DNA of 64,000 bases, taken from IMG/VR virus record IMGVR_UViG_3300021387_003827, positions 118,987 through 182,986 of that record, one strand, 5' to 3'. The position numbers were made by a program. Origin of the DNA: a virus. Taxonomy: Duplodnaviria; Caudoviricetes. How positions within the stretch are numbered: the stretch's first letter is position 1; every line of letters begins with the position of its first letter. This document shows, one piece after another, positions 12,001-18,000 of the stretch.

Positions 12001-15000
12001 GTAAAATTCTAGCGACCACTCATTATTATCCTTACACAAGTTAATGCCAGTAATGAAATAAGTTCCTCTCCAACCCCAGCAAAGATCTTCCCAATTTAAC
12101 TCGGGCAGGCTTGTTCTAATTAATTCTTCTTTCGTCATATAATTTATAAATTTTTTCTCTTGCTTCGTTATACTTATCCATGTCACCGGTTATCATGGAT
12201 TTATGTTCCTCCATAATATCAACCATTTTCTTTACAGCACAAAGCCAATCATCCTTGATATCGTCTGGAACAGTACATAACCCAGAATACTCACTTATCG
12301 GATAGAATTTAATCGGTGTATTTGGAGCCAGTTCTAATTCCTTCTTAATATCAAAGTCGGTCATTCTATTCTCGATATCAAAAGTCATCCTGACATACTT
12401 TATTGTTTCTTTATTATGTTGGATTATATATTCTTTGGCACCTTTATGATTAGTATAAAGGTCAAGGATACCTTTAACAAGTCCTCCCTCTTCCCATTCT
12501 GAAATAAGGTATTGTTCGAGATGTTTTATGATTGCATCCTCTACAGTAGTGACATTATGGGCTTCAAATAATGATATAAGTTCTCCATTCTCCCATTCAT
12601 ATCCATTTCCACATACACAAAACCAATGATGATATACCGAGAATGCATTTGGAAATATTCCCGGGAAATTAAGTAATGCTATTCTAAGTGTCTTTTCTAC
12701 ATTCATACTTAATCAATATAACCTTTATCTTCATACCAGACCCTATGAAGGTATTTCTCAAGAGTCCAATCATTATCATATAAAGGATTTCGTACAAACT
12801 TATAATTAGTGTATCCTTCTCTGTATTTTCTAGGGTAATTCATTTCAGTTATATCTATACCTTCTATAAGGGCATGAAGTATTGTAAGATTTTTCTCTGT
12901 TGTCTCAATGAACTTCCCTAAATATTCTGATCTTTTCCAATTTGATTTTAGAGCCCACATTATTCCCCTAAGATCATGAAACGACTCATTAATCAAGGCA
13001 ATATTTGGATTAGACCATATCTCGGTGATATCATTGAAGTGAAAATAACCATCTGGAAATGACGAATCCTTATAATGAAGCCATCTGTCATGTATAGATC
13101 TATAGTAGAGATAAATTCCTTCTTTAGATAATTCGTACGTATCATAGACATACTTTCCAATGATATTATCTAAGCCTTTATCACACAATTCATAATACTC
13201 ATCCAGGAGATAAAGTTCTGGACTCTTTCTGAATGGATGATTTTTAATTTTATCATGAAGAAGGCTAAGTTTATTTATTGTCTCTTCACTTATCGGTTTC
13301 ATTTTTCAATTAATTTAGCCTGTTTCCAATTCTCAGTCCAATGTTTATCAGTTTGAACATGATTTGGACGAACCCATTTACATACATTCTTTGAAAATTC
13401 ATCTATAGGAAATTCACATGTATTCCGAAGAACGATTCCTTCGATAGTGCTTCCATACGTAGATGGTCCTTGTGTATATTTCATTACCAAGTCCTTAAGT
13501 TGATCCTCACTATTTATAATCCCTCTCCATAATTCAGGAACATGTGGAAGACCTAGAATAGATGAATAGGCCTTAACATCATCCCAAGACATCCAGACGT
13601 AAGATTTATCATCTCTAATGCCAAAAATATGATAATAGGCTGGAAGATTCTCATATATAATCGAATGAATACCAAAGAGATTTTCCCCGTATATCCATTC
13701 ATCTTCCCCGATTAGATTTCGTACCCTCCAGAAAAGACCAGAATCTCCCCATATATTCTTAGACCAGGGATTTCGTGTAGGTGCCCCATGAGAACGAGCA
13801 AATACATCATTCCGGTTTATGCATATATTTTCACCATCAAGCTTTTCTGTTATAACTATTTCTTTTCCCATGTAATATCTAAACCAATCTCCTGACAACT
13901 TCTTATCATCTGAAGTAGTTCCCGGAGACCAAGGTAAATGATATGTTCTAGGATATTTATGATTTATACTTTCCATCACATATAAGGAGGAAAACCCTTA
14001 TTAATGTATGAAAGAAGAAGAAAAGATCATAGAAGAAATACTTAAAGGAGATAAAAATACCATACAATATAGGCTCTTGGTTTCTGGAAGAGTAGAGAAA
14101 ATCATTGAAAGATATGGTATAAGTCTCATCGAACTCCTAAAAGAACTTGGAGAGAATGAAACCCTACGGAATGAAGTAGAAACAGAACTTTTCCGATATA
14201 GGAGGTTGGAAATTATACCAGAGGCTGTTCCATATCTAGTAAAAGGAACAGATGCAACAACGGGAGAGAGTGTTATAGGATTTCCGTACGTCTTCATGAA
14301 AAGGTCAGATTCTGGTGGTGTGGACTTTTGTAATGTTATCTTCACCCCGGTAGTAAATGACAAAGATCAAACTATAGACACGGATATACCTTCTAAATAT
14401 GGTATGGCGTTTCCGTTGGAGGAGATGCACATAATATCGGGGAAAATGTATAAGTGGATAGGAAAAGATGAGAATGGTATAAATTATTTTGAAGGAGAGG
14501 ATTAAATGTGCCTCTTCTTTTTTTTTAACGTCAAGGGAGTATGAAGCAGAGAAGAAGGCTATCCGGAGCGTAGGCGGAGGATAGTTTTCTTCGATGCTGA
14601 ATTCCCGGAGAAAAACAGAACTTGGTCGCCGCCTACCCCTCCTCCGGCCACTTCGCTTCGCTCAGTACCCGGCGACCAAGTCCACGCTGCGCTCACAAAA
14701 TTCTCACTACGTTACGAATTTTGATATCGCTTCGCTCCTTGAAAAAGAGATATGAGGTATTATTTTAAAATTAAATCTGAACGACGCACGGCTGAACGAA
14801 GTGAAGACGGGCGGAGTGAAGTGGGTTATTTTTTATACATATATACAATCGATTTTCATTCCAAGTAAAATAACCCATTTTTTGCTATTTTGAAGGAGTT
14901 AAACCCTAATTAATGATGATAGAAGGGATGCCTTCGGCCTCCCTTCCCCGATTTGAAAATATTAAAAAATTTTTATATATGAAGAAAGATAAGATAATTG

Positions 15001-18000
15001 TTCCGAAAGGAATTAGATTTTTAGGTGAATGGTCAGATTTTTCTCTACCATCTCACCCATGCATCATTAATAAACAGATTACTGGTTGTGGTTTTACTGA
15101 ATATTGTATTACCAATAACCAAAACCTAATCCTCTGTTCTCCCCGTAAAATCCTCCTAGAAAACAAAGAAGAACAACATCACGGGAATGTTTATTATGTA
15201 AAAAATAATTTGGAGAAACAGCCAAATTTTGAGAAGGATCTTAATAAGAATAAGGAAGATCTTACTCCAGAGGGTGGAATTATTGACTATACTTCTGAGG
15301 AAATAAAAAGGTTAAAGAGTGGTATTAAATCTTATATAACTGGGTGTATTGTAGAAAACCGCCCATGTAAGATTCTAGTTACCTATGATTCTTTCCGACT
15401 AGTTAAAGACTCTATAAAAGAGATGGATTCCCAAAATATTAATATTGGGATGTTTTCTGTGGTTGTAGACGAGTGGCAAGCAATTTTTGTTGATAGTACA
15501 TTTAAATCGTCTACAGAAGTTGACTTTGTTTATCAGCTCCAGGGTATTAATAATCTTTGTTTTGTTTCAGCTACGCCCATGATAGATAAGTACTTGGAAA
15601 TGCTAGACGAATTCAAAGATTTACCCTATTATGAATTAGACTGGGCTGCAGATGATCCATTAAGAATTACTAAACCTTTTCTAGAGGTTCATCCTACTGG
15701 TAAGTCCATAGTTTCAATTGCCGCGGATATCATAGATCAATATAGGCAAGGAAAGGGTGAAGTCTTTGCTTTCAGAGATAATAACGGAGATATTCAAGAG
15801 ATAGAGTCTAAGGAGGCTGTATTCTTTGTCAATTCGGTGAAGAATATTTGTGATATAATCAGAAAGGCAAAACTTAATCCTTCTGAAGTTAATGTCTTAT
15901 GTTCTAGAGATCCAGATAATAACAAGAAAGTTAAAGCTGCTCTTGGTGTTAAAGGTAGAGGTGTGGATGTGCTAGGTAAAGTTCCGACAAAAGGAGAGCC
16001 GCATAAAATGTTTACCCTATGCACAAGAACGGTATACTTAGGGGCGGATTTCTATTCCACTAATGCTAAGTCCTATATCTTTAGTGATGCCAACATAGAC
16101 TGCTTAACTGTCGATATTACCTTGGACTTACCACAAATTCTAGGCCGACAGAGACTTGAGAGCAATCCTTGGAAAAACAGGGCAGAGTTATATTATAAAA
16201 CCCTGGCTGACAGTAAGGAGGAAACCCTAGAAGAACTTAAGGCCAGAATAAATGAAAAAGAGAAAGCCACTAATGATATCCTCCTTTCTTTCAGTCTTAC
16301 ACCAGAAGAAAGTAGACATTCGGTAGCTAGAAAATATCAACGAGACGCTAAGAACTCTAATTATAAGTATGATTATGTGGCTGTTAATGTTCATGCTGGG
16401 AAAGATTTAGTCCCTGTTTTTAATAATCTGGTTAAAATTTCAGATCTTAGAAATTATGAGATTCAGCAGGTTGATTATAAGGATAGATTTAGTGTTATGA
16501 ACTCCCTAAACGGCGGAGGAAATAATGTAATCTTGACAAACATAGATATGGTTATTCAAGATATTCTTAGTCTTCCTGGTTTTCCCGAACGAATGAAGTA
16601 TATTTATGATCTCAAGTTACCCGAAAATATAATAGAAATTGTTTTATCAAGAATTCCTATAATATATGGTAATTTCTATAGATCTGTAACCCCCGAAGAA
16701 GCTAAACGACTATCATATCGAAAGGGAGAACTGGAAAAGAGGTACGACAGAAGTATGAATAATCAACAGGTAGATACGGATAATCTTAGAGGCATGATAT
16801 ATCGAGAATTTAAGGTAGGGTCTAGATATACTAAGTCCTATATAAAAGAGAAACTTGGGGAAATATATAATGATTGTGGTTATATAAGAACCCCAAAAGC
16901 GAATGATCTCGAGGAATATTTTGAGTTATCTGACTGTAAAATTCAGAATAAAGAGACAGGCAAGAGGGATATGTCTTTTGAAATATTAAAAAAGAAATAA
17001 ACCTCGATTTCCTTATATATAGAGTGGTAGGTTTTTATCTATCAATCGTCTTCAACACAACACTAGGAGCGGTCAGTTGTGATAATTAACCGCTCTTTTT
17101 ATTTTTTTATTATTTATGGAAAAATTAAGTATACGTGATTTACTTCCTGGTCATTGGATAAGAAGTTATGGAGAAAATGACCAAATTCTTGATATAGACC
17201 AAAGTGAAGATGGAAAGTGGTGGTTTTTCGCCAAAGAACATAATGCCTGGTGTGATTGTGATGAAATATATCCAATTCCTCTAGACTCATATATTTTAGA
17301 GGAAACTGGATTTATAAAAGCGGCGGATGGATCTTATGTAATGGACGATGTTAAATTATATCCTGGTTTTAAGATTATACAGTGTGGCAAAAGGCTTATT
17401 TATAGTTCTGAATCCACTATAGCCGTCCACCAATTACAAGATATTTTCAGGTTATGTGGAATAAAGAAAGAAATAAAGGGACTAATTTAAAATCCCTTTA
17501 TTTTTTTTTAAGATCCAATATCAAATGTTATAGCTTTTCCTTCATCAAAGACATTAACACCTTCCAGAACAAGATCTCCTATATGATGTCCCCAGATTCC
17601 GAAAATTCCACTAGTTATATTTCGATTTATGAGAGGACAGCCTGGGTTTATATCACACATTCTCCCCGACTTTACTGGTGATGTTTCTTCTTCCAGTCTA
17701 TAAATCTCTATATAACCATCAACGAAGGCTTCTATGAAATCTGCACTCATTGTTATCTCCTCTGTGGTTTCAAATATGGCAGTTCTACTTAGAGGATATG
17801 TATAGTAGAATTTTGCACCCTTCGGAATAGGATAGGGGAGTGGATTATTATGAGATTTAGCCCACTCCATTGTTTCTTCTTTATGTCCGGGTGCAGCAAA
17901 GCGAAAGTTTGAATATTTCTTTTCATTAAGCTCATCCCAAATCTTTCTATCCTCTTCAGAAAGTGGATCCTTTATCACATTATTCTCGCTCTCGTCCGGC

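Follow-up and report, generated by a model that had tools for sequence, protein, structure and literature searches.

Helicase-like genes and their conserved upstream blocks as possible origin-plus-initiator modules in a giant phage

The stretch of DNA analysed here (the window) comprises the final 64 kb of the IMG/VR virus record IMGVR_UViG_3300021387_003827, which is 182,986 bp long in total, and carries two genes encoding helicase-like proteins, each preceded by a GC-rich non-coding block. We describe these units and consider them as possible modules, each formed by a replication origin and its own initiator gene. Window coordinates follow the numbering of the stretch, and record coordinates refer to the full 182,986-bp record. 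Gene A (14979..17000, + strand) encodes a protein of 673 amino acids (aa) and gene B (61531..63579, − strand) one of 682 aa. The two proteins can be aligned from end to end with 37% identity (E = 2e-125), consistent with their description in the first-pass annotation as collinear paralogs resembling superfamily 2 (SF2) helicases. A longer in-frame open reading frame (ORF), starting at 14913, was considered for gene A and rejected, because the family consensus begins with MxKxxIxVPxGIRY, which fits a start at 14979.

Non-coding region A (14506..14978, + strand, 473 nt) lies between a 165-aa ORF and gene A, and the part of this gap from 14520 to 14830 reaches a GC content of 59% (150-nt windows), against a genome mean of 36%. 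Non-coding region B (63580..64000, − strand), of which 421 nt lie inside the window before being cut by its end, likewise has a part far above this mean, so that a GC-rich block does indeed precede each gene. Exactly two copies of the 23-nt word AAAGAGATATGAGGTATTATTTT, at 14744-14766 (+) and 63813-63835 (−), exist in the whole record, and both lie in the window; shuffled sequence gave 0 matches. The core starts 235 nt before the ATG in A and 256 nt before it in B, the two blocks agree at 78 of 91 positions in their best local alignment, and TCTGAACGA and GGAGTGAAGTG follow the core in both. A shared core at a comparable upstream position had been reported previously, and this was borne out, with all the surrounding words listed at that time also present.

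Within the lineage of this window, the block displays a seven-part layout. In the direction of the gene, it consists of a purine-rich distal part; a pyrimidine-rich part, with a large-loop hairpin, CTCACTACGTT and CGCTTCGCTCC; an AT-rich core beginning at YTGAAWA; a second purine-rich part, with AACGAAGTGAA and GGAGTGAAGTG; an AT-rich promoter-like part containing TATATAG; a leader with a hairpin; and the ATG. In block A, the stem search identified a distal purine-rich hairpin, GAAGAAGGCTATCC / GGATAGTTTTCTTC (14551..14592, +; 12 Watson-Crick and 2 G:T pairs), also present in the minimum-energy fold, and a large-loop hairpin (14621..14680, +) with a perfect 11-bp stem, CTTGGTCGCCG / CGGCGACCAAG, and a C/T-rich loop of 38 nt. 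The 10-mer CGCTTCGCTC occurs twice on the minus strand, at 14654..14663, where it provides a GCGAAGC DNA mini-hairpin on that strand, and at 14728..14737, immediately before the AT-rich core TTGAAAAAGAGATATGAGGTATTATTTT (14739..14766, +), which contains the 23-nt exact repeat. To the left of the core is an antisense copy of a box, AACGTAGTGAG (14703..14713, −), and to its right a sense copy, AACGAAGTGAA (14795..14805, +), which includes an ACGAAGT mini-hairpin and lies 184 nt before the ATG. The purine-rich arm GGAGTGAAGTG (14813..14823, +) can pair with CGCTTCGCTCC across the core, with two G:T pairs, and an equivalent cross-core pairing was recovered in block B by the stem search. An inverted repeat, GGGTTATTTT / AAAATAACCC (14823..14876, +), surrounds the promoter-like CATATATAC (14838-14846), and the conserved leader TTTTGCTATTTTGAAGGAGTTAAACCCTAATTAATGATG is followed by a hairpin, GAAGGGA..TCCCTTC (14880..14946 in all, +; hairpin at 14922-14946). 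Block B, on the minus strand, has its core at 63813-63841, CGCTTCGCTC at 63846-63855, antisense boxes at 63867-63877 and 63948-63958, the 3' arm of the large-loop hairpin at 63906-63916, GGAGTGAAGTG at 63750-63760, direct repeats of AAAATGTTAAC at 63678-63688 and 63727-63737 flanking TTATATAGTATAC (63707-63719), and a leader hairpin at 63600-63624. Thus, the promoter-like motif and the leader hairpin noted earlier were found in both blocks.

Protein A has an SF2-type core of two RecA domains without the Walker lysine, followed by a variable helical region and a winged-helix-like end. The SF2 motifs DEWQ/DEFQ, SATP and QILGRQRL were recognised in both A and B, and residues D164, E165, S197, P200, Q386, G389, R390 and R392 (motifs II, III and VI) were invariant among 50 diverse family members. 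Another invariant residue, K32, lies seven residues upstream from the usual position of the Walker lysine and five before the invariant C37. The AlphaFold model of protein A (mean pLDDT 87.6) contained two tandem RecA-like domains, with Brr2, BLM, Prp43 and the Pol-theta helicase among its Foldseek neighbours (E 1e-9 to 1e-7). Its neighbours among viral models (BFVD) included, beside other helicases, 'replication origin-binding protein' of the UL9 type, with E values of 1e-11 to 1e-8 and TM scores of only 0.33-0.40. The herpesvirus UL9 paradigm invoked by the first-pass annotation therefore appears to be a generic resemblance of SF2 fold (Foldseek TM 0.3-0.4) and does not extend to sequence families: a Pfam scan of A and B at E values up to 1 gave no family save one chance match, with PF02399 (Herpes_ori_bp) unmatched. 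A PHROGs search of A and B gave nothing useful, comparison with the sequences of solved structures in the PDB gave no match, and Pfam returned nothing for the C-terminal domain in 50 members or for the ORFs flanking gene A. The C-terminal ~75 aa were modelled as a winged helix (pLDDT 94), with fold matches to the RFX DNA-binding domain (Z 6.4), the NrS-1 C-terminal region (5.1) and the phage P4 origin-binding domain (4.2); Foldseek found nothing significant for this end. Residues ~411-598 constitute the most variable region between paralogs (21% identity between A and B) and are a candidate specificity determinant. The family comprises more than 5,000 close relatives and forms 1,614 clusters at 50% identity; its members lie on contigs of up to 400 kb, both viral and metagenomic. 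No source gives these proteins a name, and we found neither the family nor multi-copy helicase modules of giant phages described in the literature.

Two copies of the gene had been recognised initially, but a search of the record with a profile of 50 family members identified three full copies, the third (C) lying outside the window, at record 69824-71842. Two further ORFs of the record have only the C-terminal domain in common with these copies. One of the two, directly behind copy C, encodes a T5orf172/MUG113-type nuclease of 333 aa that ends in this domain of ~150 aa (pair at record 69824-72840, L193 1025-4041), and the pair is also kept in the genomes G001 and G002; a 291-aa ORF (record 31541-32416) likewise bears the domain. 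The number of full copies followed genome size, at about one per 50-60 kb: one in G004 (54 kb), three in the record itself (183 kb), three in G001 (184 kb) and seven in G002 (367 kb, 93% complete). The gaps between copies in G002 ranged from 38 to 68 kb, with a coefficient of variation of 0.18, and random placement was as even as this in about 1 of 10,000 trials. Identity between paralogs was 35-51%, with no recent duplicates among the copies. The relatives L185 and L187 (68% and 60% identical to A, respectively) share the upstream gene trio of the window (404/128/39x aa), and L184 (73% identical to A) is located elsewhere, beside LemA. A comparison of empty and filled sites yielded matches for just 34 of 187 genes and 5 of 36 flanking genes, G001 and G002 being too diverged for such a comparison.

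A BT4734-like AEP primase domain was found after the full helicase-like part in P0242, P0250, P0253 and the 950-aa gene of L013, and P0242 alone had an additional weak match to PriCT_1, below the Pfam cut-off. The primase fusion is the sole family member in the 54-kb provirus G004, whose completeness was rated at 100%. BT4734-like proteins form a recognised primase family, and viral replicative primases are usually fused or adjacent to helicases (PMC5862659). The fusions in these relatives tie the helicase-like family to DNA replication. No primase domain was found by Pfam in proteins A and B themselves. A search for replication footprints in G002 revealed, after transcription had been fitted, a module-fork term in GC skew of 0.016, with the expected sign, against 0.215 for transcription (rotation P 0.02-0.03). 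PolB was not found by Pfam in G000, G001, G002 or G004, divergence being too great for this to show absence, and DnaB_C was found, among these genomes, in G001 only. As a separate observation, G002 has no DnaB_C, DnaG zinc ribbon, family B polymerase or BT4734-like primase recognisable by Pfam; its replication machinery is either too diverged to recognise or unusual.

Several elements of the block are conserved and confined to it. CGCTTCGCTCC plus YTGAAWA was kept at −234 to −266 in both window copies, L122, L184, L185 and L187. All four copies of CGCTTCGCTC in the record lie within blocks A and B, and all six record matches to the box A[AC]CG-N1-2-AGTGRR lie in the three helicase-upstream blocks. 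The sense box was found at −184 to −214 in L184, L187, L189 and L020, and also in the primase fusions L013 and L014 (33% identical to A, tblastn). As an antisense box lies on the far side of the core, the boxes form an inverted pair; the arrangement in which boxes at 14703-14713 (−) and 14795-14805 (+) flank the core (14739-14766), 184-276 nt upstream of the gene, is shared by B, L184, L187 and L189. The blocks, which make up 1.2% of the genome, contain five of the eight genome-wide matches to GCGAAGC, and in G000 and G001 the blocks show a ~50-fold concentration of this motif, most copies of which are antisense. More generally, 101 xCGNAGx' mini-hairpins were observed in 45 non-redundant upstream regions, against 26 expected, with a preference for the sense strand at −700 to −400 and for the antisense strand at −400 to −200 (Fisher p 0.001). 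Such GNA-loop mini-hairpins are known at the primase site of phage G4, ssiA of RSF1010 oriV and the early promoters of N4 (PMC13037366). The large-loop hairpin recurs with unlike stems in block B (CGATTTCCCCG/CGGGGAAATCG), L185 (AAAGGTCAGAC/GTCTGACCTTT) and L189 (CACCTGCGG/CCGCAGGTG), the four unrelated stems all being perfect, with 0 G:T among 41 pairs.

The block was better conserved than the gene in some comparisons: block A is 86% identical to that of L122 over 278 nt, and the proteins 51% identical, with corresponding values for block B and L122 of 92% over 130 nt and 35%. Non-coding DNA better conserved than the proteins suggests either strong constraint or copying between copies. Extension of the core search beyond the record, with an 18-nt pattern in viral and metagenome contigs, gave 70 matches, of which only one, L122, is a true relative, in which the core again lies ~260 nt before a paralog. 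In most family members, a run of T residues precedes a TATATAG-like motif (about −130 to −160). Relatives whose proteins are only 44% identical still share the leader words, and the stem of the leader hairpin covaries in L122 and copy C. Copy C carries AAAAAATNGTGACTTT twice, around a promoter-like TATATAG (record about 69605-69680), and copy B carries AAAATGTTAAC twice; these paralog-specific direct repeats look like operators private to each copy. The core also scores as a weak sigma-70-like site (TTGAAA-16-TATTTT), and promoter-like matches in the region were no commoner than in shuffles. The output of an expectation-maximisation motif finder, which drifted to GC hairpins, was dropped. A distinct element was observed upstream of the genes in L030, L036, L041 and L044, relatives of 370-400 kb: it resembles a four-way junction (GTGGTTC-hairpin-GGTTCA ... 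TGAACC-hairpin-GAACCAC), its hairpin interiors covary between paralogs, and none was seen in the blocks of the window.

We tentatively propose, at somewhat less than an even chance, that each module consists of a replication origin and its own initiator gene, and that the phage genome contains several such modules, at a density of about one in every 50-60 kb. In a more general form, which we hold more tentatively still, giant gut and rumen phages might possess many fixed, evenly spaced origins, each licensed by its own helicase-shaped paralog without the Walker lysine, with a replicon size near 50 kb. The first-pass annotation had already suggested an initiator and origin cassette, and indirect support for this part of it comes from the primase fusions, the presence of a copy per ~50-60 kb, the even spacing, the confinement of the box to the blocks, the strand switch of the mini-hairpins and the winged-helix-like end. 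According to this proposal, the helicase-like protein would bind its own upstream region through the winged-helix-like end and the variable helical region before it, and would open the AT-rich core lying between the inverted AACGNAGTGRR boxes. The single strands thereby exposed would fold into GNA-loop mini-hairpins, for the most part on one strand in one part of the block and on the other strand in another, at which a primase, fused to the protein in small relatives and supplied separately in giant phages, would begin DNA synthesis. The same binding would probably control the promoter of the gene too. To our knowledge, archaea are the only organisms in which a genome has been shown to carry several matched origin-initiator pairs, and the mechanism by which phage genomes of 350-400 kb are copied fast enough is largely unknown. 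We found no description of such a module arrangement in phages, and the proteins are of a different, undescribed kind from the archaeal initiators. If the proposal is correct, the modules would give viruses an equivalent of the multi-origin chromosomes of archaea, and the finding of origin-initiator pairs in phages would change the view of giant-phage replication, genome growth and modular gene exchange.

A number of observations weigh against this proposal. Motif I of both A and B is GCGFT, and that of P0250, a primase fusion, is GCGAT, so that the Walker A lysine is missing and the motor activity of the protein is uncertain. This lysine is thought to be needed by P-loop motors, and its loss suggests that the family has either a new build of ATP site or consists of helicase-shaped DNA binders. 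The fold matches of the C-terminal end (Z 4-6) fall under the tool's own line for a common arrangement, and there was no sign that the shared box tracks winged-helix similarity. Enrichment in GCGAAGC is limited to one lineage, G002 having a single copy, and the test of even spacing concerns one genome, the near-complete G002. The skew term in that genome is a thirteenth of the transcription term and marginally significant, and gene orientation showed no significant relation to the modules (P 0.22). The GC-skew check envisaged initially thus gave a small term of the expected sign. In the window, the genes flanking A on both sides run the same way. With Pfam, we found no BT4734-like primase in G000, G001 and G002, and no DnaG zinc ribbon in these three genomes or in G004, the divergence being too great for the latter result to show absence. 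No direct sign of replication was obtained. Finally, sense-strand G:T exceeded A:C in the long upstream stems (75:45, p 0.008), as expected for RNA made from the sense strand, and block A folded with a z of −4.25 as plus-strand RNA and −2.75 as minus-strand RNA.

These last two results would also fit a block that does no more than control an expanded family of paralogs by means of its promoter, operators and structured 5' leader RNA; the proteins would then act in replication, repair or recombination elsewhere, and the upstream structure would set timing or autoregulation instead of defining a start site of DNA synthesis. The conservation of the leader words and the pre-ATG hairpin with compensatory changes, and the operator-like direct repeats around TATATAG in B and C, are in keeping with such a role, and the ATG-adjacent hairpins are surely part of the mRNA. 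However, the gene is separated from the GC-rich block by the promoter-like T-run and TATATAG, located ~130-160 nt upstream of the ATG, which would place most of the block outside the mRNA. RNAalifold found no consensus structure over six blocks of the window's lineage, for which the alignment was poor, and in a search of the window with Rfam 15 only the tRNA passed the gathering score, permissive thresholds giving chance-level matches only for both blocks (E 2.7 or more). The large-loop stems are all perfect, without G:U, and GCGAAGC is meaningful as antisense DNA only; we know of no recognition of its sense RNA reading, GCUUCGC, as a stable loop. The evidence for a DNA or an RNA role of the block is thus mixed, and a control region alone, which leaves the even spacing and the single copy per ~50 kb unexplained, seems to us a rather unlikely account of the modules.

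The mobile cassette also raised by the first-pass annotation was poorly supported. Such a selfish unit would multiply both within giant phage genomes and from one to another, by transposition or a homing-like process, with the helicase-like protein, joined at some copies by a partner nuclease, acting on the structured DNA end. The family is multi-copy, and many contigs, including this record and L122, end at its genes or blocks; contig ends at repeats are, however, an assembly effect. The similarity of the B and L122 blocks despite divergent proteins suggests copying between copies, and copy C has kept its nuclease, with the shared C-terminal domain, in G001 and G002, yet the copies are old and none is recent. 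Close homologues of A occur in different settings, beside LemA in L184 and beside the gene trio in L185, but this trio is retained upstream in both L185 and L187, as in the window. A repeat search over the whole window gave gene-to-gene and core-to-core matches and terminator look-alikes only, with no terminal inverted or direct repeat pair bounding the unit and no target duplications. The regular spacing and the single primase-fused copy of the small provirus better fit a housekeeping role, and the cassette, which explains less than the origin reading, appears improbable. We attach a similarly low probability to the block being an independent gene for a structured non-coding RNA, or a promoter of the hairpin type for a phage RNA polymerase as in N4, with the helicase-like protein as RNA partner or early gene product. 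The stable fold of block A, the covarying hairpins of the 370-400-kb relatives, the weak sigma-70-like score of the core and the multisubunit RNA polymerase encoded by the phage would suit this explanation, as would the use of GNA-loop DNA hairpins by the N4 virion polymerase as its early promoters (PMC13037366). Nevertheless, there is neither an Rfam family nor an alignment-level consensus fold, promoter-like matches are no more numerous than in shuffles, and the primase fusions link the protein to DNA synthesis, not RNA.

The source of the modules is a giant rumen or gut phage, and a megablast search of 6 kb against the INPHARED phages gave no match. CheckV estimated the completeness of the record at 49%, and a protein with 97% identity was found on a 355-kb scaffold with conserved neighbours. 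An 88-base repeat classed as a 'direct terminal repeat' (window 63913..64000, identical to record 1-88, no strand assigned) lies within block B; this block forms the end of the record, and gap B resumes at the record start. On these grounds, the 183-kb 'circle' is probably about half of a genome of ~355 kb, closed or cut at the repeated block. Numerous other contigs terminate similarly; the blocks act as repeats that break or falsely close assemblies, which bears on completeness calls for giant-phage contigs.

Elsewhere in the window, a fragment of a multisubunit RNA polymerase (Rpb1 domain 2; 2-2685, −) and an RNA ligase gene (13299-13979, −) lie upstream of module A, and a tRNA-Gln(UUG) lies at 55154-55225. 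The gene nrdD, encoding an anaerobic ribonucleotide reductase of 1078 aa (20420-24750, −), contains an intein with a LAGLIDADG domain and is followed by a gene with multiple helix-turn-helix (HTH) domains plus HNH; a GIY-YIG gene instead divides nrdD in the 97% identical relative L003, so that near-identical phages carry different selfish elements in one gene. A CTTATAWATG-type word was found at many start codons, on both strands and throughout the window, where it forms several direct-repeat families (for example at 7492-7516, 11490-11512, 19451-19473, 31284-31314, 38285-38315, 57386-57410 and 61506-61530); it may be a phage promoter or a translation-start signal of near-leaderless genes.

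The proposed origin-plus-initiator modules share features with several known systems. Herpesvirus UL9 with oriS/oriL (PF02399) likewise combines an SF2 fold with a separate C-terminal DNA-binding part and inverted boxes round an AT-rich centre. UL9, however, has a normal GxGKT motif, and the proteins described here have no Pfam or sequence match to it, their fold match being generic (TM 0.3-0.4). Herpes origins, moreover, are not known to adjoin UL9. The initiators of the P4 alpha or AEP primase-helicase type (PDB 1ka8; PMC5862659) unite a primase, a helicase and a winged-helix end, and distant members of the present family combine a primase, a helicase-like part and a putative winged-helix end. 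The order is nevertheless reversed here, with the helicase-like part first and the primase last, the helicase is SF2-like rather than SF3, the proteins of the window have no primase domain, and the match to 1ka8 reaches a Z of only 4.2. In iteron-type origins, such as P1 oriR/repA and pSC101, the origin lies directly upstream of an autoregulated rep gene, with repeated binding words round the promoter. The modules resemble these in the position of the putative origin directly upstream of the initiator gene and in the repeated words around the promoter, but P1 and pSC101 have one origin per replicon and winged-helix initiators of the RepA type, which are not helicase-like.

At RSF1010 oriV (ssiA, ssiB) and the complementary-strand origin of phage G4, primase entry is signalled by GNA-loop mini-hairpins on single-stranded DNA (PMC13037366), and in RSF1010, as here, these hairpins lie on opposite strands beside an AT-rich region. 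In RSF1010, RepC binds iterons, and the helicase and primase are separate, whereas in the modules priming is a proposal and the enrichment in mini-hairpins concerns one lineage. The nearest known arrangement appears to be that of the multi-origin archaeal chromosome. The archaeal initiators are AAA+ proteins (Orc1/Cdc6), the host is cellular and firing is proven, in contrast to the SF2-like proteins without a Walker lysine considered here, which belong to a phage. In both cases, there are several origins or putative origins per chromosome, each with a diverged initiator paralog adjacent to it and an AT-rich stretch between inverted repeats. Haloarchaea and Sulfolobus have several origins adjacent to orc/cdc6 genes on one chromosome, with diverged initiator paralogs (PMC3936714, PMC3528665), and every origin of Haloarcula hispanica requires the particular cdc6 gene beside it (PMC3936714).

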